Shown in pieces: positions 7,442-59,968 of a stretch of 64,000 nt of DNA. The position numbers and the translations under genes were made by a program. Below the pieces are notes generated by a model. The model saw only the letters and a program-made list of their open reading frames with translations. It ran no database searches and had not been told where the DNA came from. The number at the start of each line of letters is the position of its first letter. The first letter of the stretch is position 1. The stretch comes from a candidate division Kazan bacterium RIFCSPHIGHO2_01_FULL_44_14 (lineage in GTDB: Bacteria; Patescibacteriota; Kazan-3B-28): NCBI GenBank assembly GCA_001771185.1, contig METB01000001.1, forward strand, positions 186,631 to 250,630, read 5' to 3'.

Positions 7442-7480
7442 TCTTCATCATTAATTTTTAATTCTTCATTTTAAATTTTC

Positions 7481-10154: not shown

Positions 10155-10167
10155 CGGCGACCGTTGC

Positions 10168-10297
10168 CAGTGCTTCGCACTGGGAAATTTATCCAATCTC
10201 TCCAATCTGACCAATCTTACCAATCTAAGAAATTAAATTGGCGAAGGTTGGAATAAATTGGATTAAATTGGTTAGATTGACCAATGCGGAGCGTTGG
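10168..10297. repeat. Hairpin element copy 1 inside rnpB (CAGTGCTTCGCACTGG, an AT-rich imperfect palindrome, CCAATGCGGAGCGTTGG).
   Basis: Same architecture and partly identical sequence to 10331-10445 and to the 23S inserts at 42974-43105 and 43741-43893. Confidence 0.7.
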
Positions 10298-10330
10298 TGA
10301 TAGGGAAAGTGCCACAGAGACAATACTAAC

Positions 10331-10445
10331 CAGTGCTTCGCACTGGAATCATCAAATCTCAAAATCCAAATCCCAAACAGATTATTGTTTGATATTTGGT
10401 GCTTGGGACTTGGTATTTCCAACGCGGAGCGTTGGTGAAAGGTGA
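10331..10445. repeat. Hairpin element copy 2 inside rnpB.
   Basis: CAGTGCTTCGCACTGG, an AT-rich palindrome, CCAACGCGGAGCGTTGG; a tandem duplicate of copy 1 with a different interior. Confidence 0.7.
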
Positions 10446-10977
10446 AAAGCAACAGGGTGTTGAAGTGTTGAATGGCGGGTTAATCCCGCCAATCGGCTCC
10501 AAAGCTACCTGTCGGACTCCGTCGTGAGACGGATGTTCTGGCAAACCCTTTCCGGTGCAAGTTGGGCTGGACCGTGTCCGTCAATCGCTTTGGTTTAGAC
10601 GAGGCGGACAAGGACCCTAACGCTTGAGATTAATGGCAACATTAACCCCAGATAGATGACTACTTCACCCACCAAAGTTTTGCTTTCGCAAAATTTAGGC
10701 GGGCAAGACAGAATCCGGCTTACGGCTGGCAAAGAGCATACAAATCAACCACCCTCTGGGGGTGGTTTTTGGTCTAAGACAATTCAGTTTATACTATGGA
10801 TGACTTAATCTTGCTAAAATAACCAAGTTATGCCCCGTAGAGAAATTTAAAATACTCTTGGCCCCAATGTTTTCCTTTGGGCCAAACCATGGGGCAAATC
10901 TCGTCAGTAAATCGTTCTAATATCTGTTAGTGGGCCAATAGCAGAAAAGAAAATATTTCTAAATTCTTCTACGGGAT

Positions 10978-31640: not shown

Positions 31641-34073
31641 GTGTGTAAAAATAAATTGATGCAATTTCTCAAACAGAATTTCTACCCTAGGCGTAAGAGT
31701 GGCAAACTGTTTTCGAAGTTGACCCACCGACAGAATATCTTGGCGCGAATTAGTTGGGCGCTGATTTTGGCAATCACTTTCACTAATATTCAATGGAATT
31801 TTAGTGATTTCGATATTCTGCCCGCGCCAACCCCAAAAGCCGAGGCCCAAGCCGCTGACCAGACCATTCTTTACTTTAAAAACGACACTGCCACTTCCAG
31901 CGCCTACTACGACATAACCGGCCCCAACAATGAAGAGAGTTCTTATACTGATGGGAACGCCGCCGACCCAACAGGCAAAACCACCGCTATAGCGATGCAC
32001 CCGATTTTTGGGGCGTTAATTCCTACCACTACCACTGACAATGTGAACCTCACCACCTCCCGCGCCAATATGAATGTCTGGTATCGTACCTTTATTATGC
32101 CGTTGGCAAATAATACGACATTTAATAGCACTACCACTTTTAACATCGGCGTCTCGGCTGATGAAAATAACGCCGCCGCCAACGCTGTCGTGGTGGGCTT
32201 TGTCTATGTCTATGATGGCGATGAGAATCCTTCGGCCAATGTCCAAACCCTGGCCGGCCCCACTGCCAGCTCGGAGGTCGGCACTGGTAACCAAGGGCTG
32301 GAGTGGGACATCGCCAATGGCCTTGGAGCCGGCTCCTACACCACCGACACGGACGACTATCTGGCAGTTGAACTGTGGGTGAACTTCCCCACTACCACCG
32401 CCCGCAATGTGACTCTCCGCTGGGGCGGAAATGTGGTGGTGGCAGCCGGCACTGGCAATATTGCCCCTGCTAGTCGAATTACCATCAATGGAACCAAGAT
32501 TGACACCTTTGACCCGCTATTTTTCAGGGAGACCAGCGCTGACCGACATCCCACCAATGAAACCACCACCGAGTTGACTCCAGAAGGAGGTACATTAGAC
32601 AGCCGCCGAATGGGGACGGTAGCCGGTAGTAGCGCCGAGACCAACGCCCAGGACACCACTGCTAGTGGCGAGTGGTTATTAAATGTGTTTACTTCACCAC
32701 CTCTGGCCGCCCAGACCATACCGGCCAGTAGCAACTTTATTATCAAGCTGGCGGGGAATGAAAGTAATGCCAGCGCTAACGCCCAATTTCGATATAGCAT
32801 TTACACTTGGGACGCCGACGACACGATTGGAGACACCATCGTGGGGTTTGCCAACAGCGGGGTTGAATGGCTCGCTGCTGATACTACCGACAACCAGGTT
32901 GAGATAGTGGTTAATAATGGGGCTGGGGCGATTACCATCTCGGATGGAGAACGGTTAGTGATAGAACTCAACACCACGGTTGTTAACTCTTATACCATTA
33001 CCCACTATTTTGGTGGCGCAAACACCCCAACCACTGCTGCTACCAACAGTGCCCTTATCCCCCCATTAAATTCCGATCGAAGGCCATTGCAGTATCTAGC
33101 CCAAGAATACGACCAAGCCAATTTTTGGTTTGATGAGGATGATGAAGATCACACCAGCAGTGATGTTCATAGTGCCTGGACCGATACAGCTGGATCAATT
33201 AACGAGAATCAATCGGGGACTTATACCGAAGATACTAATTTCCGGGTACGAATCCAAATCGTTAATCTGGGTGGCGAGACCGATACCCTGGCTCCAACTT
33301 TGTATTATTGCGATTTTTTCAGTTGCTCATATGCCCAGGTCACCGACAGTTCCACTGATGTACAAATAGCCCCCACTGCCAATATCGATCAAAATGATGT
33401 TACTACCAGACAGTTAACCGAACAAACTCCTGGCTGGGATTTTTCTGCCGGTCGGATGGTAGACACCTATGGAGTGGCTACCACGTCCGTATCGATGACT
33501 GCTTGGACCTACACCGAATATGAATGGTCGATTACAGCCATCAATCCAGGAATGTACAATCTTAAGGTCAGGGATGGGAGTACTGAACTTACCTATTACT
33601 CTTCAACCGCTTTTTTTACCGCCCAAGAGGGGTCTTCTCTCGGTGTGACTGCCCCGACTAATGTAACTCTGACCACTGGGAATCCCGGGACTACTTCCGA
33701 AACTACTTTTGGGGCTGGTGAACTGGTTGCGGTTACTTACGGCAGTGCTGGTTGGAGTTTGACGGTATCGTCTAGTGTCTTCACGGGATCTCCGACCTTG
33801 TATGTCATCCCGGCAGCTAATGTGAAACTCCGAACCGATGGAATACCACCAGCGGGTGGGAGTGATACTTACACGATCTGGTCAGGAGTTACTACTAATG
33901 TAAGTGAGCCGAGTGCCGGGACATACTCGCTCGATACCGCCAAAACCGTCGGGACCCGAAGTAGTGGCACTGGCGGAGATGTTACTAATGTTCGGCCAAC
34001 TATCCAAATCGTCATTCCGCCTGACGCAGTAGTAGAAGAATACACCGGCGATCTCACTTTCACAGTGGCCTAA
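31641..34073 (+). CDS. Large (810 aa) secreted Thr/Asn/Gly-rich surface protein with a WxL-like C-terminal end.
   Basis: N-terminal signal anchor; low-complexity beta-rich sequence; C-terminus ...IQIVIPPDAVVEEYTGDLTFTVA shares its ending with the two small WxL-like proteins. Confidence 0.55.
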   Translation: MCKNKLMQFLKQNFYPRRKSGKLFSKLTHRQNILARISWALILAITFTNIQWNFSDFDILPAPTPKAEAQAADQTILYFKNDTATSSAYYDITGPNNEESSYTDGNAADPTGKTTAIAMHPIFGALIPTTTTDNVNLTTSRANMNVWYRTFIMPLANNTTFNSTTTFNIGVSADENNAAANAVVVGFVYVYDGDENPSANVQTLAGPTASSEVGTGNQGLEWDIANGLGAGSYTTDTDDYLAVELWVNFPTTTARNVTLRWGGNVVVAAGTGNIAPASRITINGTKIDTFDPLFFRETSADRHPTNETTTELTPEGGTLDSRRMGTVAGSSAETNAQDTTASGEWLLNVFTSPPLAAQTIPASSNFIIKLAGNESNASANAQFRYSIYTWDADDTIGDTIVGFANSGVEWLAADTTDNQVEIVVNNGAGAITISDGERLVIELNTTVVNSYTITHYFGGANTPTTAATNSALIPPLNSDRRPLQYLAQEYDQANFWFDEDDEDHTSSDVHSAWTDTAGSINENQSGTYTEDTNFRVRIQIVNLGGETDTLAPTLYYCDFFSCSYAQVTDSSTDVQIAPTANIDQNDVTTRQLTEQTPGWDFSAGRMVDTYGVATTSVSMTAWTYTEYEWSITAINPGMYNLKVRDGSTELTYYSSTAFFTAQEGSSLGVTAPTNVTLTTGNPGTTSETTFGAGELVAVTYGSAGWSLTVSSSVFTGSPTLYVIPAANVKLRTDGIPPAGGSDTYTIWSGVTTNVSEPSAGTYSLDTAKTVGTRSSGTGGDVTNVRPTIQIVIPPDAVVEEYTGDLTFTVA

Positions 34074-34888: not shown

Positions 34889-35974
34889 GTGAAACAAGTT
34901 AGTTGGCGTGTTTTTATATTGGCGGGGATGGCGCTGGTGGGCGCCGGAGTTTGGTATGCGGTCAATCCAGTGACTGAAGATTTCACTGACAAACAACCAA
35001 CCCAAAACATCGATTCTGAAATTGTGATTATTGTTGGCGGAGACGTGAATATGGGACGGCAGACCGGCCAAAAGATTTTGGCCGGTGAAATTGATTATCC
35101 GTTTCTTAATATCGCCGAAGTGCTGAAATCGGCTGACATCGCTTTTGTAAATCTGGAAAGTCAGCTGGCTGACCTGAATGGCGAGACCCAGTCCCCCACT
35201 AATGAATATCGGTTTGCCGGACCACCCGAAGGAGCCCAGAGTTTGGCCAATGCCGGAATTGATATTGTATCGGTAGCTAATAATCATATGTGGGATTATG
35301 GCAAAGCCCGACTAGAAGAAACTTTGACTAATTTAAACAATGCTGGGGTGATTTATGTTGGTGCAAATATGGACCCGACCCAAGTTTGGACCCCAAAAAT
35401 TATCGAAGTCAAAGGCAAAAAAGTCGCTTTCCTAGCGATGACTAATCTGCTTAACGGCTACGAAAACTCTGGCGCCAATGAGTTTGTCGCCTTCCAAAAT
35501 GGATCTCGGCTAGTAGCAGAAATTCAGAAGATTAAAGATGAAGTTGACTGGGTAATTATATCCCTGCACAGCGGAGCCGAGTACACTGCCAATCCCAGTT
35601 CGGCCATGGTCCAGATGTCCCACGACTTAATCGACGCTGGAGCCGATGCAATTTTAGCCGGACACCCGCATGTTCCGCAGAGAATAGAAGAATACACTGC
35701 AGGTTCAAGTAGCCCATCCTTCACTAAAGTTTCGGAGGGCGAGGGAATAAAAAATCAGAGTAAGGGTATTATTTTTTATTCCCTCGGAAACTTTGCGTTC
35801 TGGCAACCGTTTGATTTTTGGACCCAACATTCATTTCTGGCCAAACTAAAATTAACCATCCCGCATCAAGTCGAGTATGAGATAGTCCCTGTAAATTCGG
35901 GCTGGCAGCCCTCGGTGCTAACCGATACGGATGCCATTCAGCAGTTAATGACCCGACTGAATCCAGAATCGTAG
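34889..35974 (+). CDS. CapA/PgsA-family metallophosphatase (poly-gamma-glutamate capsule synthesis family).
   Basis: Signal anchor; VIIVGGDVNMGRQ...FVNLES...ANNHMWDYG...ISLHSGAEY...LAGHPHVPQ (PGA_cap pattern). Confidence 0.7.
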   Translation: MKQVSWRVFILAGMALVGAGVWYAVNPVTEDFTDKQPTQNIDSEIVIIVGGDVNMGRQTGQKILAGEIDYPFLNIAEVLKSADIAFVNLESQLADLNGETQSPTNEYRFAGPPEGAQSLANAGIDIVSVANNHMWDYGKARLEETLTNLNNAGVIYVGANMDPTQVWTPKIIEVKGKKVAFLAMTNLLNGYENSGANEFVAFQNGSRLVAEIQKIKDEVDWVIISLHSGAEYTANPSSAMVQMSHDLIDAGADAILAGHPHVPQRIEEYTAGSSSPSFTKVSEGEGIKNQSKGIIFYSLGNFAFWQPFDFWTQHSFLAKLKLTIPHQVEYEIVPVNSGWQPSVLTDTDAIQQLMTRLNPES

Positions 35975-39592: not shown

Positions 39593-40183
39593 AATTTCTT
39601 TTATCTGTCATCCCCAACTTGATTGGGGATCCAGACAGAGACACAAACACTTTTCTGTTATTTTCTGGATTCCCTCCGCCAGTTGGCGGATTCGCGGGAA
39701 TGACAAAAAGTATAACTGGATGACGGACAAAATGGATTGAGCGCAGAGTACCCGCGACGGATTCTGCCGTTCGGCAGAACTTTCAGCCCACCTTGTCCTG
39801 CTGGACAGCAGGACGGTCCAACCCCGAAGGGGCCCTGGAATCTTTGGCGCATAATCCCCGCGACGACCTACTTTTGCAGGACCTTGCGGTCCAACTATCA
39901 TCGGCGCTGAGGAGCTTAACTGCTCTGTTCGAGATGGGAAGAGGTGTGACCTCCTCGCTATCATCACGGAGATTATAAGCCAAAGAATCTTACTAGGGTG
40001 CTGTTCGAGATGGGAATTCTGCTGTACAGCAGAATCCGGTATCATCACGAGCCTGCCCGCCAAAGTGATATCTATATTTAAAGTGGCTAATGACCTATTT
40101 TGAATGAGATTGAACGACGGCGGGAACTCTAAACTCAATGGGATAGATCCTGAAACAAGTTCAGGATGACATTTGTAAAAGTA

Positions 40184-40915: not shown

Positions 40916-41659
40916 CATGATAATCCATTATTACTAATGGCATAGACTATATCTTCATCCTTTCCGCCCACCGGCGGAGGAGGAGGTGGCGTGTGATTCT
41001 GCGCTACGGCAAAATCTCATCAGTTGTTCTTGCTTTGAACAATTGAATCAGTCGTTACGGGGAACAAGATGATGTGTTTGCAGAAATTGTTTGACCGTTG
41101 CTTGCGTGGTCGTGCGTTTCTTTGAGTAATTATACTTTGCGGTTTCATCCACTAGAGTCGCTCTAGCAAGCAACTCTTGGGGAGTGATTCTCTGGTATGA
41201 AGAACCAATGCCCTTAACGCATAAATCAATAACCTTCTGCGCTAGGACTTGTTTCAGTTGCAGATATGGCAACAATTTGGTTAAAACTTCGTAGACCGGC
41301 TGATACCCAACAATCGTGTATTCAGCCATCTGATCATTACGAACACGAACATATCCATGTTTCAGGTGGCCCTTAAGCCATTCGAGAAAGTGTTTTCTGT
41401 CTTCTTTTTGATAAAAGACAATGCTGACTCGAATCTGATAGCCGTGGACATATCCACTCCGTTTCACCAGTTGCGCCATAATGCAACCATCTCCATCCAA
41501 AAATCCTGCAATGTAAGCAAGTAATGTTTCTGCCATTATCTTGATCTTCCCTCGGGGTTACCCTTTTTCCGTTCGGTAGGAAAGTAGGGTTTCTCCGATA
41601 CAGCCACATTTATTGTACCGCATTTCTGCGGTAGAACGCAATGTGATTTACGTTCTGAA
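40916..41659 (-). mobile_element. Group I-type intron (744 nt) in 23S domain V, inserted between ...GGGTTCAGAACGT and CGTGAGACAGTTCGG (the E. coli ~2586-2593 region), encoding a LAGLIDADG homing endonuclease.
   Basis: Flanking exon sequences align to E. coli ...UAGAACGU|CGUGAGACAGUUCGG; the 5' exon ends in U, the insert ends in G, and it contains the 41048-41536 ORF. Confidence 0.75.
41048..41536 (-). CDS. LAGLIDADG homing endonuclease (single-motif, I-CreI-like size).
   Basis: MAETLLAYIAGFLDGDGCI... motif; 162 aa; located wholly inside the 23S intron. Confidence 0.85.
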   Translation of the reverse strand: MAETLLAYIAGFLDGDGCIMAQLVKRSGYVHGYQIRVSIVFYQKEDRKHFLEWLKGHLKHGYVRVRNDQMAEYTIVGYQPVYEVLTKLLPYLQLKQVLAQKVIDLCVKGIGSSYQRITPQELLARATLVDETAKYNYSKKRTTTQATVKQFLQTHHLVPRND

Positions 41660-41672
41660 CCCAGCTCGCGTG

Positions 41673-41704
<32 letters not shown>

Positions 41705-41718
41705 AACCTGCTCCAGCT

Positions 41719-41749
<31 letters not shown>

Positions 41750-41781
41750 AAACCGCTTCGTCGATATGGACTCTTGGAAGC

Positions 41782-41813
<32 letters not shown>

Positions 41814-42291
41814 TCGTTGAGCTTCGGCGCACCCATGTGCAACCGTCGGATCACTATATCCTGCTTTCGCATCTGCTTGACTTGTAGGTCTCGCAGTTAA
41901 GCTCCCATATACTATTGCGCTATCGTCCCGATTTCCATCCGGGACTAGGGAACCTTTGAACGCCTCCGTTACTTTTTAGGAGGCAACCGCCCCAGTTAAA
42001 CTACCCACCAAACGCTGTCCTCCTGCCAGATAATGGCTAGGAGTTAGAATTAAAAATGCATCAGGGTGGTATTTCACCGTTGACTCGCTGATGGCTAGCG
42101 CCACCAGGTCATTGTCTCCCACCTATCCTACACAAATAAATCTCTAACCCAACGCCAGGTTGTAGTAAAGCTCCACGGGGTCTTTTTGTCTTGCTGCGGA
42201 TAGCCGGCATCTTCACCGGCAATGTAGTTTCGCCGAGTCCCTCTTTGAGACAGTCATCAGACCGTTACGCTATTCGTGCGGGTCGGAACTT

Positions 42292-42578
42292 CATGTTAAC
42301 TCTATTTTTCAATAGAGATCAGACTATACCTTCATCTTGTCGCAAACCGTAGGAGATCGTTTTCGCGATATCCATAGTTTGTTTGCTAGACAAGAGCTGA
42401 CGTGTTGTTCCGCTTTACAGCAGAACCTCGCCTTTCGGCTCAGTCGTTACGGGTCACCTTAATTATAAGGTGTTCCCTCGGTATTAGCATATCCCCATAG
42501 CATAAGGATTTAGCTTTCACCGATATGAGTCAGTTTGCTTTGTAGTGTTACCACTACATTCGGGCAAGTTTCCCACCT
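42292..42578 (-). mobile_element. ORF-less intron-like insertion (287 nt) in 23S at the position equivalent to E. coli ~1931 (GUCGGGU | AAGUUCCGACC).
   Basis: Exon sequence is continuous with E. coli after removing the insert; the insert ends ...GTTAACATG (3' G) and follows an exon U. Confidence 0.6.
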
Positions 42579-42598
42579 ACCCGACAAGGAATTTCGCT

Positions 42599-42787
42599 CT
42601 TAGATTCCTTACACTAAGGACCATGTCTTCACCCCGATTAGTCGGGGGCGTGGTGTATGGCCTCTTGTAGCCACGTATGGACTTTCTTTATGTTGCCATA
42701 AAGTAAGGTAGCATTTTGCGAGTTATCGTATCGCTTATAACAGTCCCAGTCCTTCTCGATTTAACAATTTTAATTGTTCAACCGAGA
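42599..42787 (-). mobile_element. Short intron-like insertion (189 nt) in 23S at the position equivalent to E. coli ~1917 (GGUCCUAAGGU | AGCGAAAUUCC), 20 nt upstream of the previous one.
   Basis: The exon 20-mer AGCGAAATTCCTTGTCGGGT separates the two inserts. The insert contains an exon-mimic GGTCCTTAGTGTAAGGAATCTAAG near its 3' end. It is short for a group I intron, so its class is uncertain. Confidence 0.5.
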
Positions 42788-42823
<36 letters not shown>

Positions 42824-42973
42824 AGGGCTTAGTGTCAGAGCTTCGCCTTGCGGCTAACCCCTCTACGTGACCTTCTGGCACCGGGCAAGCGTCAGTCCCT
42901 ATACTTCCTCTTTCGAGTTAGCAGAGACCTGTGTTTTTGCTAAACAGTCGCCTGATGTCTTTAGCTGCGGCCC

Positions 42974-43105
42974 ACCTCACGCTCCGCGTGAGGAAATCTA
43001 ACCAATTTATTCCAATTTATTCCAACCTTCGCCAATTTATTTTCATAGATTGGTAAGATTGGTGAGATTGTTTAGATTGACTAAATTTACTCGTGCGAAG
43101 CACGA
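42974..43105. repeat. Hairpin intervening-sequence element in 23S helix 63, same family as the rnpB inserts.
   Basis: On the rRNA strand: CGTGCTTCGCACG, then an AT-rich segment (CCAATCTTACCAATCTA..TAAATTGGCGAAGGTTGGAATAAATTGGA) about 90% identical to 10200-10290, then CCTCACGCGGAGCGTGAGG. Replaces the E. coli helix-63 variable region. Confidence 0.75.
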
Positions 43106-43740
43106 TGTGGGCAGTCCTTATTCCGAAGTTACGGACGCTATTTTGCCGAGTTCCTTAAAGAGGGTTCTCTCGTGCGCCTGAGGCTACTCGCCCTATCCAC
43201 CTGTGTCGGTTTAGGTACGGATGCTTAATATTCTCGTTAGAGGTTTTTCTGGTCAAATTAGATCAGCCAAGTCGTATTGTCCCGAAGAACTCAACTTCCA
43301 TTCGTAGCTCACGGTTGCTCAATAAATTGAACAGTCCCCCGGATTTGCCAAAGGGACCCCATTAACTACTTAGACCAAGAAACCTATCTTGGCTCGGCCT
43401 ACCAACTTGCGTCGCCCCATCACTAGACGTGCAGACCGGTAAAGTCAGCATCCAGCCTACCTTTCGGCAGGTTGATCATCTGATCTACCAATTTGCTTGT
43501 CTTGGGCGAATATCAAGCAGTACAGGAATATTAACCTGTTGTCCATCGCCTACGCCTTGCGGCCTCGGCTTAGGACCGACTAACCCTGGGACGAAAACCG
43601 TTACCCAGGAAACCTCGGATAAATCGGCGTCAAGGTTTTTCACCTTGATCTCGCTACTCGTGCCAACATTCTCACTTCTGCGCGCTCCACCCAACCTCAC
43701 AGTTAAGCTTCACTGCTGCGCAGAACGCTCCCCTACCACA

Positions 43741-43893
43741 CCACTGCTACGCAGTGGAAGCACTAAATCCTAATTACTAAATTCTAAACAAGCCCCAAAT
43801 CCTAATGTCCCAAAAAATGTTTGGAAAATTGAATCATTGGAATTTGTTTAGAGTTTATGATTTCGAATTTCGTATTTCCATTGCGGAGCAATG
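43741..43893. repeat. Hairpin intervening-sequence element in 23S helix 45.
   Basis: CCACTGCTACGCAGTGG, an AT-rich palindrome, CCATTGCGGAGCAATGG. Inserted between ...GATACCGAAGATGCGGATG and TGTGGTAGGGGAGCGTTCTG (E. coli ~1164-1185). Confidence 0.75.
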
Positions 43894-43979
43894 GCATCCG
43901 CATCTTCGGTATCTAGCTTAGCCCCGTTACATTTTCGGCGCAGACACACATCGACCAGTGAGCTATTACGCTATCTTTA

Positions 43980-44010
<31 letters not shown>

Positions 44011-44518
44011 TTGTTAATGTGTCTCCACTTCCTTTCACACTTAGCTAGATTTAGGGACCTTAGATGGCGGTTTGGGCTGTTTCCCTTTCGACATACGACG
44101 CTTAGCCGCCGTTTTCTGACTCCCATGCTTTAACCAGACAGTATTCGGAGTTTAATTGGATGCGGTACGGTAAACCGCCCGAATCCATTCAGTAGCTCTA
44201 CCACTGCTGGGAACGCTATGAGGCTATACCTAAATATATTTCGGGGAGAACCAGCTATCTCCGGGTTCGATTGGAATTTCTCCGCTAACCACAGCTCATC
44301 ACCCCACTTTTCAACGTAGGTGTGTGCGGCCCTCCACTGCTTCTTAGGGCAGCTTCAGCCTGGCCATAGTTAGGTCACCCGGTTTCGGGTCTAATCCCTG
44401 CTACTTCAGTCGCGCTATTCGCACTTGCTTTCGCTTCGGATACGGATTAAAAATCCTTATCCTTGCAACAGAAATTAACTCGTTGGCTCATTCTACAAAA
44501 GGCACGCCGTCACCCCAT

Positions 44519-44676
44519 CAGCACACAATGCTGGATGAAATAACCAAATTCCAAATCACAAATCACAAACAAACTCCAAATTTAAATTTCTAAACAAAAA
44601 AAACAGAAAAATTATTATCTGGTGCTCATTTGATGATTGATTATTGGCGTTTGGTTACTCCAGCACTCTGTGCTGG
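44519..44676. repeat. Hairpin intervening-sequence element in 23S helix 25.
   Basis: AGCACAGAGTGCT, an AT-rich low-complexity palindrome, AGCATTGTGTGCT. Inserted just 5' of GGCGTGCCTTTTGTA (E. coli ~530-545). Confidence 0.7.
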
Positions 44677-44739
44677 CGGGGCTCCGACTTTTAATCGGGC
44701 ATTCGGTTTCAGGTACTATTTCACTCCCCTCACAGGGGG

Positions 44740-44779
<40 letters not shown>

Positions 44780-46062
44780 GAGAAATGATATTTAGCCTTA
44801 CCAGATGGTCCTGGCACATTCCGGCAGGATTTCACGGGTCCCACCGTACTTAAGAAATAATGTTCAGAGTGATTTTCTTTTCGCTTACGGGACTTTCACC
44901 CACTATGGTTGCCCTTTCCAGAGACCTTCAGCTAAGAAAATCATTGTTAACTCCTAATTTGGTCTACCGCCCAAAAATACATCACCCTTATAACCCTCTC
45001 CTACACAACGCCAGTAGGCTTTAACATGTAAGAAAGTTTAGACTCTTCCCTTTTCGCTCGCCACTACTTAGGGAATAACATTTGTTCTATTTTCCTCGTG
45101 CTAATAAGATGTTTCAGTTCACACGGTTCCCTCCTCATTGTCTATGTATTCAACAATGGGTTCCCGCCAATTCAAAGCTTGTATATCGCTACTACCCATT
45201 CGACTAATCAACTAATTATTTATCGATTGGAATGTTTGATACACCAGCCCTAAATTGGCGGGAGGATTGCTCCATTCGGACATCCCCGGATCACAGGTTG
45301 TTTGACACCTACCCGAGGCTTATCGCAGTCTACTACGTCCTTCTTCGGTCATTTCTCCCAAGGCATCCACCGCATGCCCTTGAGTAACTTACGCTCGTTT
45401 CTCCAAGAGACGAGTGCCTTGCACTTTAAATCGACGATTCAAGAAAGCGATTTTGCTTTCTTTATCTTTCTTTTCTTTCAGTGCATGTTGTCAACGAACT
45501 AAAAAATTCAAAGAATAACTGGAAGGGGCTAAAAAAATGATAATCCCTCGGCGCTGCTCGGGGTAAATTTTACTGCGTAAAAATTAAAAAGCAGGGCGTT
45601 CATCCCTGCTTGAAGTCAACAGTTAACGGATGAACTTAGATTTGAAGCGAATTTTGTAAATATAAAATAGCCAAGTCGTCTAGGCCAGAAGTTAAATTGG
45701 ATATTAGTTTCCTCAAAAGCTTATAAATAGTGTTATATGTGGTCTCACCAAAGTGGCAGAAGCACTAGTTGCAACGATACTATATATACCAGTTGCCCGC
45801 AAGAGATATTTTGCCATTCTGACCTGGAATAGTCAACCCCGTAGAGAATTTTGGACAGGCGCCTCTTGCCGGGTGCCTCCTGATACCAATCATCCAAAAT
45901 CTTCTACAGGGTCAAGGGGGGCCTGTCAATGGGTTATAATCAGGTTATAACTCCTATTCGTCCCGCCTGCCCCGTGCGAATGAAATGAGTCCTTCGGGGT
46001 TAGAAATCACCTACCGGGATAATCGAGGAACGGATAGAAGTAATTCATAAATATACGCTAGG

Positions 46063-49900: not shown

Positions 49901-50146
49901 TTAGGTTAACAAGTGTTTATTGGCAAATGCTTTCCCAGAACCAGCTTTTAGATAGGTTTCGAACTTTTCAGCTTGGGCTTTTGTCTTGAATGCTATGTAG
50001 CAAATCATGTCCCACGGTTTGAACTTGCTAGTATGTGGCGATTGACCAGCGTTGTGTGCAACAAACCGAGATTTTAAATCGGATGTACTACCAATATATG
50101 TTTGCATTTTATTCTTATGACTGCGAAGCAGATAAACGTAATACAT
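49901..50146 (-). CDS. Small GIY-YIG nuclease-domain protein.
   Basis: MYYVYLLRSHKNKMQTYIGSTSDLKSRFVAHN; start at the internal ATG; lies next to tRNA-Ala. Confidence 0.7.
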   Translation of the reverse strand: MYYVYLLRSHKNKMQTYIGSTSDLKSRFVAHNAGQSPHTSKFKPWDMICYIAFKTKAQAEKFETYLKAGSGKAFANKHLLT

Positions 50147-50272
50147 AATTTTATTATGCCCTACTACGCTAAAGCTACGAAGGGCAACCTTCGCTGTTTT
50201 CTCTACATTAAAATCTGTGCCATAAGCACACCTTGAGCGGCGCAGCCAACCGTAGCTCGATAGAGCGAAGGT

Positions 50273-50346
50273 TGGTGGACCTAGGCAGAATTGAACTGCC
50301 GTCTCAGCAATGCGAATGCTGCGTACTACCGCTGTACTATAGGCCC
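50273..50346 (-). tRNA. tRNA-Ala (anticodon CGC) with the G3:U70 identity pair.
   Basis: Reverse complement is GGGCCTATAGTACAGCGGTAGTACGCAGCATTCGCATTGCTGAGACGGCAGTTCAATTCTGCCTAGGTCCACCA. Confidence 0.85.
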
Positions 50347-50464
50347 TCGTCGGAATGGATTCGCCTTGACGCACATCCCTCGGCTAGCTCGGGCCGGCTC
50401 TTGGGGCTCATCATTCCTCCTCTCAAAATCACAAACAGAAGATTAGTTCGTGATTTTGTTTTTT

Positions 50465-51805
<1,341 letters not shown>

Positions 51806-51816
51806 TCAATCTCTTG

Positions 51817-51883
51817 TCGTCATTCCGGCGAAGGCCGGAATCGTATAAGATTCTGGATGCGCTTCGCTTACCAGAATGACGGG
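51817..51883. repeat. Hairpin element (GTCATTCCGGCGAAGGCCGGAATCGTATAAGATTCTGGATGCGCTTCGCTTACCAGAATGACGG); second copy at 63064-63162.
   Basis: A 45-nt core identical in both copies. Confidence 0.8.
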
Positions 51884-51889
51884 AATTCT

Positions 51890-51995
51890 AGCAAGTAATT
51901 TTGAATGACAAATTTTGAATTTTGAGTGGATTACCTAATGTCTTAATTTTGAAACATTCAGTCACTTAGATTTGATTAGAAATTAGAAATTGGGT
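51890..51995. repeat. Second copy of the about 105-nt element seen at 48400-48515.
   Basis: Direct alignment. Confidence 0.75.
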
Positions 51996-52104
51996 TACCA
52001 TAACTTTTCATCGCAGATCCTTCCGTAGTTCTGCTGTACAACAGAACGAAAGAGGACTTTTTACTTATAACTTTTCACTTCCCCAGTTCTATCATACCTA
52101 ATAA

Positions 52105-52150
52105 AAAACCCTCGGGCTAAACCTGCCTGCCGGTAGGCAGGACCCGAGGG
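52105..52150 (-). terminator. Rho-independent terminator of the surface-protein operon, containing a nested CTGCCGGTAGGCAG palindrome.
   Basis: Minus strand reads GCCCTCGGG...CCCGAGGGTTTTTTATT. Confidence 0.65.
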
Positions 52151-52172
52151 CCAGTATGAGTTAGGATTTAGT

Positions 52173-53471
52173 TTAGGTCAAGTCAGAGTCAGTTGTGGCT
52201 GTGACTGTGGCCATCTTGCGGTAGGCCAACCAGGAGGCACCTAGTGCCATCAGAACTACACCAACCCATAGAATGTCCTCTGGACCATTATTGGGTAGTG
52301 TTCCCATTGTATAGGTATAACCCACGAAACTGGCTTGGGTGTCGCTAGCGGTTAGCACTCGCACCGTCAGGGTGGCTTGGGCAGTCAATGAAGAGTTGGC
52401 CGGAACCTGGACTAAAATTTGATTGTTGTTCCAGTCCAAGACCGTGGCCTCTAATAATCCAACAAAGACCTTGCTCTTGCTGGTATCGTATTCACCGAAG
52501 TTACCACCAGAAATTGTTACCTGTCTGGCGACATCTTTGTTGCCATAACTTGGTTGAACACTGGAGATGTATGGGTTAGAACCAATTGGGCCAGGATTAA
52601 AACCGCCACCGACCGTAACAGTAGCAAAGCCATTTTTTGTGACCGCACCCTGTGTTGCTGTCACAGCGACCTGTGCAGAACCGGTTGCACTTCCAGCGGT
52701 AAATGTAGTTGAACCACCGGAGATCGGACTGACGGTTCCGCCGATACCGATACCACCAGCGGGTTGTACCACGCTCCATGCGAATGTAACACCAGAAGCA
52801 ATTGTTGCTCCACTAGCATTCAACGCTGTCGCCGTAAACGATTGTGTACTATTAACAGCCACCGAAGCTGAAGTCGGAGAAATCGTTACTGAATTCAAAA
52901 CCTGATCGGTTGGTTGAGAACTGGTAATGGTAATATTGGCGGTACCACCACCATTGCTGGCCAAGATATCACCCTGGCTTGGGGTCTGATGAGCGACATT
53001 GGATTCTGACTGGCTGATACCAATCGTGGTACTACCAGTGTGTAATGTCTTGAAAGTTAGAGTAGAAACCTTGGCACTAGCCGAATTAACCGCAGTCGTA
53101 CTCCCCGGAGCAATCAACCCAGTTATAAGTTGTTTCCCACTTCCCCGCGCAAGGACGATTGGAATAGTAAATAAACTACCAGCATTATTAGCGCTGACAA
53201 ACTGCAAGTCGGTTGGAGTAAATGTGACTACCGCATCAACTCCGACTACCGGTTGACCGCCGGTATTAACCATCAAGTCAATTGTAAATTCGTTAGTAGC
53301 ACCCGCTACATAACTGGCGGTCTTGGTTGACGGACTAAAGAAAAGCGATGCTACAGTCGTACTTGATTGAGCGATTACCGGCATTACGCCCATCAGTGCC
53401 AATCCGGCACCGGTGAGTCCGCTTACTAATTTAACGATTTGCTGTTTCATTTTTGATTTTAAACCGGCCAA
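52173..53471 (-). CDS. Cell-surface protein with Ig-like (BIG2-type) repeats and a C-terminal TM anchor.
   Basis: Signal peptide; VTISPTSASVAVNSTQSFTATALNASGATIASGVTFAWSV repeat; C-terminal hydrophobic helix. Confidence 0.55.
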   Translation of the reverse strand: MAGLKSKMKQQIVKLVSGLTGAGLALMGVMPVIAQSSTTVASLFFSPSTKTASYVAGATNEFTIDLMVNTGGQPVVGVDAVVTFTPTDLQFVSANNAGSLFTIPIVLARGSGKQLITGLIAPGSTTAVNSASAKVSTLTFKTLHTGSTTIGISQSESNVAHQTPSQGDILASNGGGTANITITSSQPTDQVLNSVTISPTSASVAVNSTQSFTATALNASGATIASGVTFAWSVVQPAGGIGIGGTVSPISGGSTTFTAGSATGSAQVAVTATQGAVTKNGFATVTVGGGFNPGPIGSNPYISSVQPSYGNKDVARQVTISGGNFGEYDTSKSKVFVGLLEATVLDWNNNQILVQVPANSSLTAQATLTVRVLTASDTQASFVGYTYTMGTLPNNGPEDILWVGVVLMALGASWLAYRKMATVTATTDSDLT

Positions 53472-53508
53472 CCTTATTACTTCATTATACTACATTTAGC
53501 ATTTTTTG

Positions 53509-54123
53509 TCAAGAGGTAGGTGTAGTCGTCTCAACAGGGATAGAACCGGCTGTAGCCGACTCCTGCATCTGTCTCAAAAACTCGGAATAATCGCGAGAAT
53601 CGACTGCCCCGTCTCCGTTCAAGTCAGCTGAACCCTCGGAGCCGGACTCGCCTGTGACAGTAACTCCATCAGCACTAAAACTATTTAAAGAGAATTCATA
53701 AATCGCTTTGTCGGTAGCCACAAATTCAAATTGAGCATCTTTTTCTGGTTGACCAGAGACCGTCATTTTGATGATGTAACTTTCGCCAGCCAGTAGTCCC
53801 ATACCACGGAAAGTAATCATTCCGCTAGCATCAGTTAAAGCAACTGTCTTTTTCGCAAAACTTTCACCGCTGGCTTTGGCAATAAAGTCAAAATTGGCTA
53901 CATCTGGCGCAGTTGCTGGATTATAAGTAAGTGTAATTGAACTATCAATTACTGAAGCACCGGCACCAATTAGTTTCAAAAATCCCTCTAAGAAATTGCT
54001 TTGAGTTAGTAAGGTTACAGCTACCACTAAACCAGCCAACGAGACCAAGGCCGTAACGACCCAACGATAATTTTTTGGTTGGGGTTGGGGTTGAAGTTCT
54101 GGTTGTGGGGTTAAATCTTCCAT
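53509..54123 (-). CDS. Membrane-anchored protein with a dockerin-like Ca-binding motif.
   Basis: N-terminal TM; C-terminal DLNGDGAVDSRDYSEF. Confidence 0.45.
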   Translation of the reverse strand: MEDLTPQPELQPQPQPKNYRWVVTALVSLAGLVVAVTLLTQSNFLEGFLKLIGAGASVIDSSITLTYNPATAPDVANFDFIAKASGESFAKKTVALTDASGMITFRGMGLLAGESYIIKMTVSGQPEKDAQFEFVATDKAIYEFSLNSFSADGVTVTGESGSEGSADLNGDGAVDSRDYSEFLRQMQESATAGSIPVETTTPTS

Positions 54124-54126
54124 GGT

Positions 54127-57100
54127 TTATTGAGGTTGAGGATTAGATATACCATCGGTGTGCATAGCACCATCGCTCCACCAGTTGCTGTAGAACCAAG
54201 GAGTATCAAGAGCGTTGATTTCAGTATCGTTATTAAAATCGGACAGCTTGGTCAAAAATGTCTCAACCATTTCACTTATAAATTGGCCCCAGTCAGTCGA
54301 GTCAATTGTGTCCCAAGAGTCATAAGCATTGTCTCCAGTAGTTGCACCATAAGCGATATCTCCGGCTGGAAGTTCTGGGAACTCTAAACCGACTGCCAGA
54401 GGGGCGTTGTTGATTGTCTGGGTAACGATGAAACTGCTCCCAGTGACACCATTAACCTTGCTCGCTTTCTGCGAAAGATGTTGAGGGGTCTTGATGTAGG
54501 CGTTATAACTCTTACCCAACTCTAAATTGGACTGCACAGATGGGATTGTCATGCTCCCGTGATCGGTGGCATCAGTGACTAATGTAGAGTCCTGATAAAC
54601 GGATTGTAGGCCTTCGTATAACGCAAGAGTAAATCGCAAGTCAGGGTTCTTAATCTCGCCACGCTGGACTGGAGCGGTGAAAGCAATATTTACTTGCGGG
54701 ACAGTTCCATCGGGAGGTGTGACAGAGCCGACTATTAATGTAGTAACTGTGCTCCTTGCAACAAATTCACCGGCAGTCGCACTGACAATAAATGTATAGG
54801 TACCCGGAGTGGTGGAAGTAAGTTTTAGAGTTGCACCCCCCGGAACATTGGTGGTGACTGAATCAAAAGTAATCGCGACTTGACCTTCTGCCCAGCTTGG
54901 GTTAGCGATAGCAAGTGTTACTGAACCAGTAAAGGTCGGGCTATCGACTGGGATAACTGTGATAGTGTAATCCGCACTAGCACCAGTATCGATCGTTTTG
55001 GTATTTGGTGTAATGGTGATTTCAAACGGGGCATTAACAAAGTCGGTGCTGTAATTAATCGTCACACTAGTGACTGACGGTAGTTCAGTATCGAGAATAC
55101 TGTCTGTGATTTCGAAGGCAACCACTAATTGAATTTTAGTGGCTGAATTTAATACTCCTGCACCAAACTGACTGGCACGGTCAGCATCCAAAATTGACAA
55201 TGCGCCAGTATCACTCCGCTGTAACGGGAAAGCGTAAATAAGTTTGTCTTGACCACTGCCGTCTACCATATACAAGCTCAACCAATATTTAATAGTGGCG
55301 GTTTGGGAAAAGTTGCTTTCTGCCGCAGCCCCGCCAGTAATGTCGGTTAAGCGCGAATTGGTCTCACCGACTCCAAACAACGGTTTAATCGCAGACGCAA
55401 ATCGCATTTGATAATCAGATGGATTAGTGCCATCACCGGTATGACCGGCAGAGATTACTGAAAATGGGTCGGAATCTCTAGGGGTTGTTCCGCCACCCAA
55501 AGTTGCAATGAGATGAATTTTTTCATTAGCCAGTTCAGTAGGAACAGTCCATGAAAAATCATATTCTAGCCGATCATCCGGATTGATACCTTCTATGTTT
55601 TTAGGCGTCCCACCCGTAATGGCGTACTGGATAAACATAATATCGAACTTCGACATATCCCAACCATTAGGAGTGATTTGAATATGAATTGGCAAAATTT
55701 TACCAACCACCGCTACGGTTCGTGCGGTAGGAGTAGTGAAATTGATGAATGGGCCGTCACTAGAGGCAACAGTAAAGTCCACGGCTGGGAAACTACTTTT
55801 GGCATTTGCGGTTCCAACCGATAACTTATAAACCCAGGTGAAACTGAACCGATATTTCTTGCCTGCCGTTAAGACGGAGGTTTTATCACCGCTCCAAGTA
55901 TAAGAATCAGTTGGTCCCGTCGTGCTTGGTTCTAGTTGCACGATTTCTGTCCAATTATCTACTTTTTCTTGTCCGTCTGTACCCTTAACCACTTCACCAT
56001 AATGAATCTGTAAATATCGAGTATTTTGATGGAACTCTGGCTGTTGAGAAGTGTAAGCCGGTGGATAGGTCCACTTAATCGTATACGGCTGTCCAACCAT
56101 AACTTCGTTAGGTTGCGGTTGAGTAACGGTCAACCGTCCACCAAAGACCACTGGATAACTAGTGTAAACAAATGAGTTATCTCTAGAATAAAACACTAGG
56201 TTGGCTGCTTTACCAATCCAGAAAGCTGTATCCTTTTCACTAGTTGCCTCCAATGGATTTCTCCAATCATATGAGCCATCAGATAAGTTCACTGAACCTA
56301 CATCCATGGTTTCAGAGTCATCGGCCAACGCATATTTAACATGTGCTACTAGGTCTAGATTGGCAGGAACATTATCGGCCATACTCCATTTCAAAGTAAA
56401 AGACCGATATTCTTTACCATCGCTAAGAGTAACTAACTTTGGCTTAATCACACCATTGTCTGGCCCAGTTCCAATTTTCGTCGGACTGGTTAATTCGATT
56501 GGGGCAGTAGTAGAGTTAACTTTCAGATCGCCGGAGTTGGTTTTACTGTACTCTACGCTACCCTGGAGAGTACTTAATTTAGTGGTAATCAAAAACTTGA
56601 TCGTACTGCCGAGTTTGACATCTGTCGGAATGGTCCATTCTTTACTAGTAATAGATACTGGATCGATGTCTGGTGCAACTACCTGGCTCTTCCATGTCTT
56701 ACTTACAGAATCATAATTGTAATAAGCCGTGACATCTGCCTTAAGACCACTTGGAGGATTAGCTTTAACATTAACTGCCCATTTTAATATATATTTTGCT
56801 CCCGGATAAACTGGCCCAGCAGTTCCGACAGGAGCCGACCAAGTAACAAAACTACTTAGTGGCATAGATATCCTGTCGATTGCGCCAGCTACGGGCGTAC
56901 CGCGTCCTTCAGGATATTCGCCGTCAGCGGCATAACTAATAATCTGCATTCCTAGTGTCGGGCCAGAACCGCCGGTATAACTCCAAAATTGGGACCCAAT
57001 ATGGCTCCACAAAAAAGATACGACGCCATATGTGGTGGCGAGGTAAGATCCAAAATGGCCACCGGCCATCCACTCGTCAATTTTGAACAAATCCGGACTG

Positions 57101-57762
57101 CCATTGACGAAATGTCCCATTAACACATGGGCTTGATTATAAAAATCTGTTGCTCCACTGCTACTCGGTGGCGCAAAGTTCCCACCCTTCCAAGCAAGGT
57201 CTAACGCAAGTTGATCGCTTCCAAATTCTTGTTGAGGAATTGGTTTCTGCCAGTCAGTGGGCCCGGCGGCGCTGTTAATTATAGATCCAGACTTCATCCG
57301 CCATACTTTTACTGTATGACTATAAACCTTAGCCCCGGCGTCATATACCTCCAATGTGAGAGTAGTAAATCCCTGATTCAAGAAATCAACATTGGTCAAT
57401 AGTTTAGTTAAATCCCAAACAAAAGTATATTTACCCTTTTGGTTAACCCCAGATGTATAGATTGAGATTAACACCCCAGAAGGATTTTTGACCAAGAATT
57501 CTATCCCAGAGCTAGTTGTATTGGTCAACACTTCGTACTCCCCCTGATAGGTGCTATTAGCCAAAAGCAAATCCCCACTAGTCGGATAATTGATTCTGAT
57601 ACTTTGTGGAATGCTCTGTGCCTCTACCTTTTGACTGACACCCTGATAGACCATCCAACCAGTGAACGACATCGCCAAGACCAAGACCAACGCCCAATGA
57701 ATATAGGCGGTGTTTGATTTTGGTTGATGATTCTCTAATTGTTTAGTTAGACGTTCGAGCAT
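54127..57762 (-). CDS. Giant (1211 aa) extracellular beta-rich protein, N-terminally anchored, with a C-terminal dockerin-like motif.
   Basis: Continuous ORF; signal anchor (WALVLVLAMSFTGWMVY); C-terminal DFNNDTEINALD. Confidence 0.6.
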   Translation of the reverse strand: MLERLTKQLENHQPKSNTAYIHWALVLVLAMSFTGWMVYQGVSQKVEAQSIPQSIRINYPTSGDLLLANSTYQGEYEVLTNTTSSGIEFLVKNPSGVLISIYTSGVNQKGKYTFVWDLTKLLTNVDFLNQGFTTLTLEVYDAGAKVYSHTVKVWRMKSGSIINSAAGPTDWQKPIPQQEFGSDQLALDLAWKGGNFAPPSSSGATDFYNQAHVLMGHFVNGSPDLFKIDEWMAGGHFGSYLATTYGVVSFLWSHIGSQFWSYTGGSGPTLGMQIISYAADGEYPEGRGTPVAGAIDRISMPLSSFVTWSAPVGTAGPVYPGAKYILKWAVNVKANPPSGLKADVTAYYNYDSVSKTWKSQVVAPDIDPVSITSKEWTIPTDVKLGSTIKFLITTKLSTLQGSVEYSKTNSGDLKVNSTTAPIELTSPTKIGTGPDNGVIKPKLVTLSDGKEYRSFTLKWSMADNVPANLDLVAHVKYALADDSETMDVGSVNLSDGSYDWRNPLEATSEKDTAFWIGKAANLVFYSRDNSFVYTSYPVVFGGRLTVTQPQPNEVMVGQPYTIKWTYPPAYTSQQPEFHQNTRYLQIHYGEVVKGTDGQEKVDNWTEIVQLEPSTTGPTDSYTWSGDKTSVLTAGKKYRFSFTWVYKLSVGTANAKSSFPAVDFTVASSDGPFINFTTPTARTVAVVGKILPIHIQITPNGWDMSKFDIMFIQYAITGGTPKNIEGINPDDRLEYDFSWTVPTELANEKIHLIATLGGGTTPRDSDPFSVISAGHTGDGTNPSDYQMRFASAIKPLFGVGETNSRLTDITGGAAAESNFSQTATIKYWLSLYMVDGSGQDKLIYAFPLQRSDTGALSILDADRASQFGAGVLNSATKIQLVVAFEITDSILDTELPSVTSVTINYSTDFVNAPFEITITPNTKTIDTGASADYTITVIPVDSPTFTGSVTLAIANPSWAEGQVAITFDSVTTNVPGGATLKLTSTTPGTYTFIVSATAGEFVARSTVTTLIVGSVTPPDGTVPQVNIAFTAPVQRGEIKNPDLRFTLALYEGLQSVYQDSTLVTDATDHGSMTIPSVQSNLELGKSYNAYIKTPQHLSQKASKVNGVTGSSFIVTQTINNAPLAVGLEFPELPAGDIAYGATTGDNAYDSWDTIDSTDWGQFISEMVETFLTKLSDFNNDTEINALDTPWFYSNWWSDGAMHTDGISNPQPQ

Positions 57763-57866
57763 TTTTGGTTTTTATTTTTGACTAATTGTAATTGAATTTT
57801 TGGTAGTCCCTTTCCTCGGCAAGCTCGGAACCTTGCTCACCCTTGGGGAAGCACTATTTAAAATTA

Positions 57867-58097
57867 TTAAGGCAATTTGATGGTCAAGTTGTTGCCATCC
57901 ACCTTGGTACCAGTATGAGTTCCACCAGCCCAATCGGTGCCATTAAAGATAACCTGCGGACCAGTCACTTCGGCCTTGGAGCCAAATAACTTAATCCAAT
58001 CAACTATCTGCCGACCGAACAAAACAAGCAAAATTACCGCAACGGCGGCAAAGATAGTTAGTCCAATTTTGAACCCCCTGGTTTGGAAAAAGAACAT
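57867..58097 (-). CDS. Small secreted/membrane protein, first gene of the surface operon.
   Basis: 76 aa with an N-terminal TM helix. Confidence 0.4.
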   Translation of the reverse strand: MFFFQTRGFKIGLTIFAAVAVILLVLFGRQIVDWIKLFGSKAEVTGPQVIFNGTDWAGGTHTGTKVDGNNLTIKLP

Positions 58098-58227
58098 ATT
58101 GAAAGGTTGATTTTTATTTTAGGTATTAAATTATAATACTACAAAATCTGGTTTTTGTCAAGGGGAAGTCCGTAATCCCCCAGTTGACTCAACCCTGCCA
58201 TTTATAGTAGAGTTAGCCAAGTATGAG

Positions 58228-58347
58228 TCCCGTTGGAAATCACCTAACGGCACCCTCACTGCCCTGTCAAACAGGCACTTACTATAAACATACACTCATG
58301 ACACTAATATCGGACTAAAAACGCTAGGTCCCTTATTTCTAACGAGA
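58228..58347. mobile_element. MITE-like element (about 120 nt) with 13-bp terminal inverted repeats TCCCGTTGGAAAT / ATTTCTAACGAGA.
   Basis: About 90% identical to 59839-59968. A solo TIR lies at 58352-58364. Confidence 0.7.
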
Positions 58348-58486
58348 TGAATCCCGTTAGAAACTGTCCAGCCAAGGAGAAATTGGGTTCATCTAGTCAA
58401 CCAATGTTTACCACTAATACCTTCCATACCAGTTTTGCGAAAAAGAATTCCTGGAGAATTATTTTTCGCGTAAGGTTTCTAACGGG

Positions 58487-58729
58487 ATGAAGAAGGATAT
58501 CCATCCAACTTATTTCCCGAAAGCCAAAATTGCCTGCGCCTGCGGGAATATCTTAGAGGTGGGCTCAACTCAAGAGTCGACCAGGGTTGATATCTGCTCC
58601 AAGTGCCATCCGTTCTATACTGGGAAGCAAAAACTGATGGATAAGGCCGGACGGGTAGAAAAATTCCAGGAACGGCTGGCTCGAGCCAAGGCCGGGGTTA
58701 AGGCCAAAGTAGCCAAAAAGAAGGCCTAA
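58487..58729 (+). CDS. rpmE: 50S ribosomal protein L31.
   Basis: [28 protein letters not shown]...[13 protein letters not shown]. The ATG is directly preceded by TTTCTAACGGG. Confidence 0.9.
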
Positions 58730-59838: not shown

Positions 59839-59968
59839 TCCCGTTAGAAATCACCTAACGGCACTCCTACTGCCCTGTCAAACAGACACTTACTATAAAC
59901 ACTACATTCACAACATTAATATCGGACTAAAAACGCTAGGTTTTTATTTCTAACGGGACTTATTCCCT
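59839..59968. mobile_element. Second full copy of the MITE-like element (TIRs TCCCGTTAGAAAT / ATTTCTAACGGGA), starting 5 nt after the prfA stop.
   Basis: Direct alignment with 58228-58347. Confidence 0.7.

Follow-up and report, generated by a model that had tools for sequence, protein, structure and literature searches.

The window analyzed here, a 64,000-nt stretch of contig METB01000001.1 (positions 186,631 to 250,630) from the groundwater bacterium candidate division Kazan bacterium RIFCSPHIGHO2_01_FULL_44_14, contains four adjacent minus-strand genes that probably constitute a non-cellulosomal cohesin–dockerin module for surface display, conserved in the Kazan lineage of the Candidate Phyla Radiation (CPR; Patescibacteria). 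Along the minus strand, the quartet consists of small76 (57867-58097; 76 amino acids, aa), which has an N-terminal transmembrane (TM) helix followed by a conserved motif and has no dockerin; a giant protein (54127-57762; 1211 aa) with a leader/TM segment, a string of beta-sandwiches, and a C-terminal dockerin-like module; p204 (53509-54123; 204 aa), in which a TM helix and the SNFLEGFLKLIGAGAS motif are followed by a small beta domain and one dockerin-like segment; and p432, a single-cohesin membrane anchor (52173-53471 from a TTG start, 432 aa; 52173-53450 from an ATG start, 425 aa). The genes are separated by 104, 3, and 37 nt, the last gap being 58 nt if p432 starts at the ATG. Their neighbors are obg (50465-51751) on one side and, from 58487 onward on the opposite strand, rpmE, prfA, and prmC. 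An earlier note on this DNA had listed these four open reading frames (ORFs) and assigned anchors to their products, and all four ORFs are present. The hydrophobic helices, N-terminal in small76, the giant, and p204 and C-terminal in p432, are legible in the sequences and present in the structural models.

The cohesin is in p432. The earlier description of an Ig-like-repeat protein captured one domain of p432, a Big_2-like immunoglobulin-like (Ig) domain, but the architecture is more precisely a Sec-type signal peptide (..VIAQS), a cohesin, the Ig domain, a TIG/IPT domain, a conserved GPE motif, a TM helix, and a terminal Y(R/K)K (YRK in the window). The cohesin domain (52917-53354, minus strand; residues ~40-185 in the 432-aa numbering) is a nine-stranded flattened beta-sandwich with the jelly-roll fold of cohesins, and its nearest structural matches are cohesins of Clostridium perfringens toxins. 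The sequence-profile evidence holds at the level of the family. A profile built from eight p432 cohesin sequences has cohesins as its 10 best matches in the PDB (best 8e-4), Pfam Cohesin (PF00963) is matched by two of six p432 orthologues (best 3.6e-6), and the more distant orthologue from locus L010 has a precomputed, unmarked Cohesin match (≤1e-5). The TIG/IPT domain (52311-52574, minus strand; residues 300-387) is matched by Pfam PF01833 (E 5e-10), and the Big_2-like domain has a weak match to Leptospira Lig.

The C-terminus of p432 bears on how the cohesin is held. In the window it reads LPNNGPED, a hydrophobic helix, and YRK, and LPNNG resembles the LPXTG pentapeptide of sortase substrates. 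The locus could accordingly be read as a sortase-assembled fiber, with p432 attached to the wall by an LPXTG-like signal and the other proteins serving as pilus-like subunits, and there is precedent in ScaE of Ruminococcus flavefaciens, a single-cohesin anchor that is sortase-anchored (PMC12484212). However, orthologues of p432 have LPGSG, VASGP (VASGPE in L012), or no motif (L010) in the corresponding place; GPE, the TM helix, and Y(R/K)K alone recur, and a tail of 10-25 aa extends beyond the basic residues. Moreover, the giant and p204 have neither a sorting signal nor a pilin motif. Given that the orthologues have no pentapeptide in common and that a scan of 20 window ORFs revealed no sortase, we rejected the sortase reading and regard such a fiber as very unlikely.

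The giant protein has no match among curated families (Pfam, NCBIfam), and a search of the PDB with the single sequence was also empty; in NCBIfam, the other quartet proteins likewise had no meaningful match. Only three relatives of the giant are present in an index of 5.8 billion sequences. An exhaustive phmmer search of 1.84 billion representatives with residues 12-1211 as a single sequence found 14 proteins, of which three are full-length and the remainder match the last ~300 residues alone, often together with the N-terminal leader. This leader/TM segment (residues 1-49) is conserved, ends in VYQGVSQKVEAQ, and follows the pattern ..L..QL...P....WA..L.LA...GW.VYQGV.Q.V.AQ in relatives. The C-terminal module of ~300 aa (54163-55035, minus strand; residues ~910-1200) comprises one or more Ig-like domains, a beta-sandwich with the motif Y.AY.KT..HL..KA, and the dockerin-like module, and is modelled with a predicted local distance difference test (pLDDT) score of 62-92. 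It is the only part common to the giant and to shorter proteins that occupy the same slot in related loci.

Canonical dockerins consist of two tandem segments of ~22 residues, each with a 12-residue EF-hand-like Ca loop (D1, N/D3, D/N5, N/D9, D12) and a helix. The giant has a dockerin-like module of two segments (54163-54381, minus strand; residues ~1128-1200). Segment 2 is canonical, with loop DFNNDTEINALD (54205-54240) and a helix, and segment 1 (GDI...DSWDTIDSTDW) is atypical but keeps the GD, I8, D9, D12, and an aromatic residue at position 13. When the 14 family members are aligned, the last ~75 residues begin with GD and continue with an insertion of variable length, ..D.[IV]N..D[YFW] and a helix, and then DFN.DG.[IV]N..D[IL]; the G of GD and the D12 residues of both loops (D1157 and D1186 in the giant) are invariant. 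A profile of this region recovers dockerins in 27 of 28 PDB matches (best 3.5e-7, to the CelS dockerin), and Pfam Dockerin_1 (PF00404) matches 11 of the 14 members (best 1.8e-5), so that, at the level of the family, domain searches bear out the dockerin likeness. A dockerin/EF-loop pattern searched in the six-frame translation of the window has two matches only, DLNGDGAVDSRD in p204 (53590-53625) and DFNNDTEINALD in the giant, against a mean of 0.075 in triplet shuffles (P for at least two matches ~0.005). These are the loops that had been noticed in two adjacent proteins. In the giant, the loop had been taken for the terminal motif; it is present but lies ~30 residues short of the C-terminal end.

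The AlphaFold2 model of the giant has a mean pLDDT of 61 (62-92 in the C-terminal 420 residues) and shows successive beta-sandwiches, followed at the end by two to three short helices; in the dockerin region, helices are modelled at residues 1155-1167, 1184-1191, and 1199-1202. In a Foldseek search of the PDB, the model matched generic chains of Ig or macroglobulin (MG) domains only, with TM-scores of ~0.1 (titin-associated, alpha-2-macroglobulin, complement C5, mastigoneme, and GhpA), and these matches suggested no particular function. The fold is predicted to consist entirely of Ig/MG-like beta-sandwiches. The strongly conserved beta-sandwich that immediately precedes the dockerin (Y.AY.KT..HL..KA ... 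FP.L.AGDI) may, by analogy, resemble the X-module of X-dockerin dyads. Among full-length orthologues the most conserved stretch is at residues ~156-310 (~56833-57297, minus strand), which is W/G-rich (GSDQ.AL.L.W.GG...PP, WS.IG.QFW, DGRGT), has no family match, is modelled at pLDDT <50, and may be a distinct non-Ig functional domain.

A cohesin together with dockerin modules is a hallmark of cellulosomes, and cellulosomal cohesins are among the best structural matches of the p432 cohesin, which could indicate a minimal cellulosome, that is, a polysaccharide-degrading complex on a scaffoldin. Yet Pfam and NCBIfam detect no glycoside hydrolase, carbohydrate-binding module (CBM), or other catalytic domain in the four proteins and 10 relatives, the giant is modelled as Ig/MG-like throughout, and each locus has one cohesin instead of a multi-cohesin scaffoldin. 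Since the locus has neither dockerin-bearing carbohydrate-active enzymes or CBMs nor more than a single cohesin, it does not correspond to a cellulosome, and this reading is the most improbable of those considered.

The dockerin-like segment of p204, DLNGDGAVDSRDYSEFL (loop 53590-53625, minus strand), is near the C-terminus and aligns with segment 2 of the hidden Markov model (HMM) of the dockerin family. It matches Pfam Dockerin_1 with an E of 0.0014 (below the cut-off; positions 27-51 of 57) and PDB entry 6kg9 with an E of 0.0026. A single segment is present in p204 of the window and in all orthologues (L003, L004, L010, L013, and L015). Because there is only one segment, p204 is not a full dockerin and has a single F-hand. 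No Ca loop was found in small76, which has orthologues in L001, L002, L003, L010, L013, and L015. The two small proteins have similar motifs after their TM helices (LF..QIG.LL.LFG.KA in small76 and ..SNFLEG.LK.LG.GAS in p204), and hhalign gives a weak, suggestive match between small76-type and p204-type N-terminal modules (probability 25%, P 8e-4). At locus L012, a small76-type N-terminus is fused directly to the dockerin-tailed protein P0019. We also considered whether the N-terminus of small76 (..TRGFKIGL..) might be type IV pilin-like and rejected this, as it has no G/F-x-x-x-E signature and its post-TM motif is common to p204.

Transcription of the quartet appears to be more complex than the single four-gene operon that the earlier note described. 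The strong terminator is there, as a compound GC-rich hairpin followed by U6 (52103-52152, minus strand; dG -32.7 kcal/mol, z-score -4.7), and is common to all four genes. However, two sites match promoter consensus sequences, one upstream of small76 (58133-58161, minus strand; TTGACA-17-TATTAT, 11/12 consensus) and a perfect sigma-70 consensus upstream of the cohesin gene p432 (53484-53512, minus strand; TTGACA-17-TATAAT). The internal site is kept in the window, L004 (10886-10914), and L010 (15203-15231), with the -10 context GTAGTATAAT in common and the surrounding intergenic DNA diverged; the stop codon of p204 falls inside its -35 hexamer, as does that of the upstream gene in L004. Given this conserved promoter before the fourth gene, the quartet is probably organized as two nested transcription units with a common terminator, the internal predicted promoter driving the anchor separately. 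As orthologues of p432 all open with MK(K/Q)QIV and the perfect promoter ends at 53484, the true start of p432 is probably the ATG at 53450, which gives the 425-aa form.

A motif of 15-17 nt, TTTCYAACGGGAYTCAT, and its complement are found at 58223-58239, 58336-58351, 58347-58363, 58476-58491, and 59949-59963, with four copies, partly as inverted pairs, in the divergent small76/rpmE intergenic region and one copy between prfA and prmC. The strict pattern has three matches versus 0.07 expected. This motif may serve in regulation or represent a small repeat element. A stretch that looks palindromic (CGTCATTCTGG...CCGGAATGACG) lies at 51800-51900, on the obg side of the terminator, in the spacer of 420 nt that precedes obg.

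The quartet is also found in related genomes. Counting the window, about nine distinct loci have the four-part set between rpmE/prfA and obg, and the genes do co-occur outside of the window. These are the window itself, L002, L001/L004-L007 (Kazan GW2011), L003, L008/L009 (a metagenome-assembled genome, MAG, labelled Saccharibacteria), L010/L011, L012, L013/L014, and L015. In each sufficiently complete locus, local HMMs detect a full dockerin, a half dockerin, and a cohesin, exactly one of each, and they detect no further cohesin or dockerin elsewhere in the 64-kb window. Among the matches listed, a scan of genome contigs identified a Kazan genome and the one MAG labelled Saccharibacteria. Gene order differs in L003 and L013, where the half-dockerin gene is followed by those for the small protein, the slot protein, and the cohesin.

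The dockerin-tailed protein in the slot of the giant is the variable member of the set. It can be as short as 491 aa or as long as 1351 aa, and the domains that it contains are not the same in every locus; P0021, for example, has a Calx-beta domain. Slot proteins P0018, P0024 (491 aa; L013 1194-2669), and P0025 have an internal cohesin-like domain in addition to a dockerin tail. That of P0025 matches the p432 cohesin HMM at 8e-8, and those of P0018 and P0024 are cohesin-like by eye and alignment only. In principle, head-to-tail self-association would be possible for slot proteins with both types of module. Sequence divergence is much faster in the slot protein than in its neighbors. Between the window and Kazan GW2011, the slot protein is 43% identical, versus 82% for Obg, 88% for L31, and 69% for RF1; between the window and L010, it is 27% identical, versus 55-56% for Obg and RF1 and 70% for L31.

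Several observations weigh against a cohesin–dockerin module. At the level of the window proteins, p432 has no Pfam Cohesin match at E ≤ 1, the TIG domain being the sole Pfam domain detected, and the giant matches Dockerin_1 weakly (E 0.17). Segment 1 of the giant dockerin is atypical, with a 10-residue insertion and without the canonical D1 and N3, and the single segment of p204 is not a known working form of a dockerin. The giant and p204 each have an N-terminal TM helix and therefore may need no tether. Residues ~156-310 of the giant, modelled with low pLDDT, could hide another activity, and architecture and evolutionary rate are the sole grounds for suggesting an adhesin. Some of these points are also consistent with the loops being ordinary structural EF-hand-like Ca sites in four independently anchored neighbors, with no docking of a dockerin into a cohesin. 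Each quartet protein has a membrane anchor of its own, the window proteins are below threshold for both Pfam Dockerin_1 and Cohesin, p204 has one segment, and Pfam Dockerin_1 often catches isolated Ca loops. Conversely, a true cohesin fold adjoins dockerin-family modules in all of the ~9 loci, even where the giant is down to 27% identity. In a protein that otherwise varies, the dockerin module is the best conserved region; it invariably occupies the extreme C-terminus, and its GD start and loop D12 positions do not change. Independent Ca sites are thus an unlikely explanation, though one that retains some weight, and the suggestion in the earlier note of a cohesin–dockerin-like surface scaffold is supported in silico and strengthened by the cohesin in p432.

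We propose the following arrangement for the display module. A Sec signal peptide would direct the export of p432, and the C-terminal TM helix would retain this anchor in the membrane. The Ig-like and TIG domains would raise its one cohesin, which is presented at the distal, N-terminal end. The giant would be exported as a string of about ten beta-sandwich domains, without a catalytic domain, and would end in a beta-sandwich plus two-segment dockerin-like module reminiscent of an X-module/dockerin dyad. Ca2+-dependent docking of this module into the p432 cohesin would display the giant at the cell surface and, if its leader stays uncleaved, the giant would arch between its own N-terminal TM helix and p432. 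Two membrane-embedded accessory subunits, p204 and small76, would share the post-TM motif, and p204 could, through its one dockerin-like segment, either compete for the cohesin interaction or complete it. Between lineages, the body of the slot protein is swapped and diverges rapidly, with the leader, C-terminal module, and cohesin anchor retained. This pattern fits a giant that would bind a ligand as an adhesin and be under pressure to diversify, its most plausible task being attachment to another cell or a surface.

The same tether could instead hold a giant that is a structural, S-layer-like component of the envelope, making the locus a core envelope feature and not an adhesin system. The location among housekeeping genes (obg, rpmE, prfA, and prmC), vertical conservation in the lineage, and the strong consensus promoter of the cohesin gene are compatible with this role, and fold searches with p432 and the giant give the S-layer proteins Sap, SbsC, SbsB, and EA1 among Ig-chain matches. 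However, those matches reflect generic similarity of Ig domains (TM-scores of ~0.1-0.2), and a protein whose length varies from 491 to 1351 aa and whose domain content changes between lineages would be unusual as a lattice former. We consider a structural role to be improbable. A more elaborate version of the adhesin model, which is speculative and rather unlikely to hold as a whole, is that the locus is a plug-in cassette for host attachment specific to Kazan-type CPR bacteria, in which a conserved single-cohesin membrane socket accepts a rapidly replaced dockerin-tailed adhesin. In this cassette, the half dockerin of p204 would gate display as a split or competing dockerin, whether it dimerizes to make a full F-hand pair or instead occupies the cohesin, and P0018, P0024, and P0025 could self-polymerize into surface fibers.

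Other features of the window are consistent with a CPR bacterium. The closest named relative of p204 is in candidate division Kazan bacterium GW2011_GWA1_50_15 (CP011216; complete genome of 602,646 bp). The 23S rRNA gene (41576-45394, minus strand) is 3819 nt versus 2925 nt for the model and includes a group I intron match (42300-42588, minus strand). The 5S rRNA gene (39855-39971, minus strand) is ~1.6 kb from the 23S rRNA gene, with a 162-aa ORF (41048-41536) between them and no adjacent 16S rRNA gene. The RNase P RNA (10083-10733, plus strand) is 651 nt versus a model of 367 positions. Insertions in rRNA and unlinked rRNA genes are typical of CPR bacteria. The earlier guess of a small-genome bacterium is sound because of the long intron-bearing 23S rRNA, the unlinked 5S rRNA, the 651-nt RNase P RNA, and the Kazan relatives.

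Other genes of the window are also related to the cell surface. Paralogous proteins with WxLIP_PGBD (peptidoglycan-binding) and LysM domains (22437-23831 and 28592-30007, both plus strand) flank or adjoin three ORFs without a Pfam match (25854-27392, plus strand, 512 aa; 30014-31528, minus strand, 504 aa; and 31641-34073, plus strand, 810 aa), and this region may be a second cell-surface gene cluster. Envelope polysaccharide genes are present at 2939-8878 (minus strand), 12889-14745 (plus strand), and 34889-35974 (plus strand), and include those for a DUF4012 protein, two GT4 glycosyltransferases, a Bac_transf priming sugar transferase, a Wzy_C/O-antigen-ligase-like protein, and a PGA_cap capsule synthesis protein. 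Beyond obg, a 157-aa ORF (49901-50374, minus strand) has a C-terminal half (YVYLLRS...) that is GIY-YIG-like by eye. Since its N-terminal part overlaps tRNA-Ala (50273-50346), this ORF is probably shorter than listed.

Among known systems, the closest functional analogue appears to be the ScaE anchor of R. flavefaciens with its X-dockerin partners ScaB and CttA, the latter a cellulose-binding adhesin. The differences are substantial. ScaE has a canonical LPXTG/sortase signal, whereas p432 has a GPE-TM-YRK tail; ScaE belongs to a large enzyme-bearing cellulosome, whereas no enzymes were found in the Kazan locus; and the half-dockerin and small TM proteins of the Kazan locus have no counterpart in the ScaE system. 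In C. perfringens, the toxins (GH33 sialidase and GH84 NagJ) have non-cellulosomal cohesin–dockerin pairs that join secreted enzymes together. Unlike these, the Kazan locus has no enzymes, its cohesin carrier is membrane-anchored, and its genes are in one conserved locus. A 2009 study by Peer and colleagues (cited in PMC10066038) reportedly described non-cellulosomal cohesin and dockerin modules in Archaeoglobus fulgidus and other non-cellulolytic prokaryotes. Cases of that type are mostly scattered single genes, in contrast to the fixed, syntenic four-gene unit of the Kazan locus, in which the dockerin-tailed slot varies and one partner has a single-segment dockerin.

Dockerins have also been noted in other ultrasmall host-dependent bacteria. 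The protein SEML1_0315 of the saccharibacterium Southlakia epibionticum is essential and is an envelope protein with a dockerin domain (PMC10633639), and a giant ORF of Omnitrophota has nine dockerins (PMC10066038). Like the Kazan giant, both place dockerins on envelope or giant proteins, with adhesion proposed, though the likeness is by description only, and neither a cohesin partner nor a conserved cohesin–dockerin locus is described in the passages on these proteins. We found no description of a conserved cohesin–dockerin locus in CPR bacteria in the searchable literature, whose coverage is incomplete.

How CPR bacteria outside of Saccharibacteria attach to partners or surfaces is largely unknown and, to our knowledge, the Kazan lineage has no cultured member. 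The family of the giant is very small, with 14 clusters among 1.84 billion representatives, so its biological role may not extend beyond a single lineage. Within that lineage, the p432 cohesin and the X-dockerin-like tail of the giant are a concrete, clonable pair of modules with which to address whether a Ca-dependent tether forms, and p204 offers a natural single-segment dockerin whose behavior is not predicted by current dockerin rules. The variable "business end" of the slot protein could carry partner specificity. If the proposed module is correct, the use of cohesins and dockerins would extend from the assembly of enzymes to the display of adhesins in bacteria with reduced genomes.

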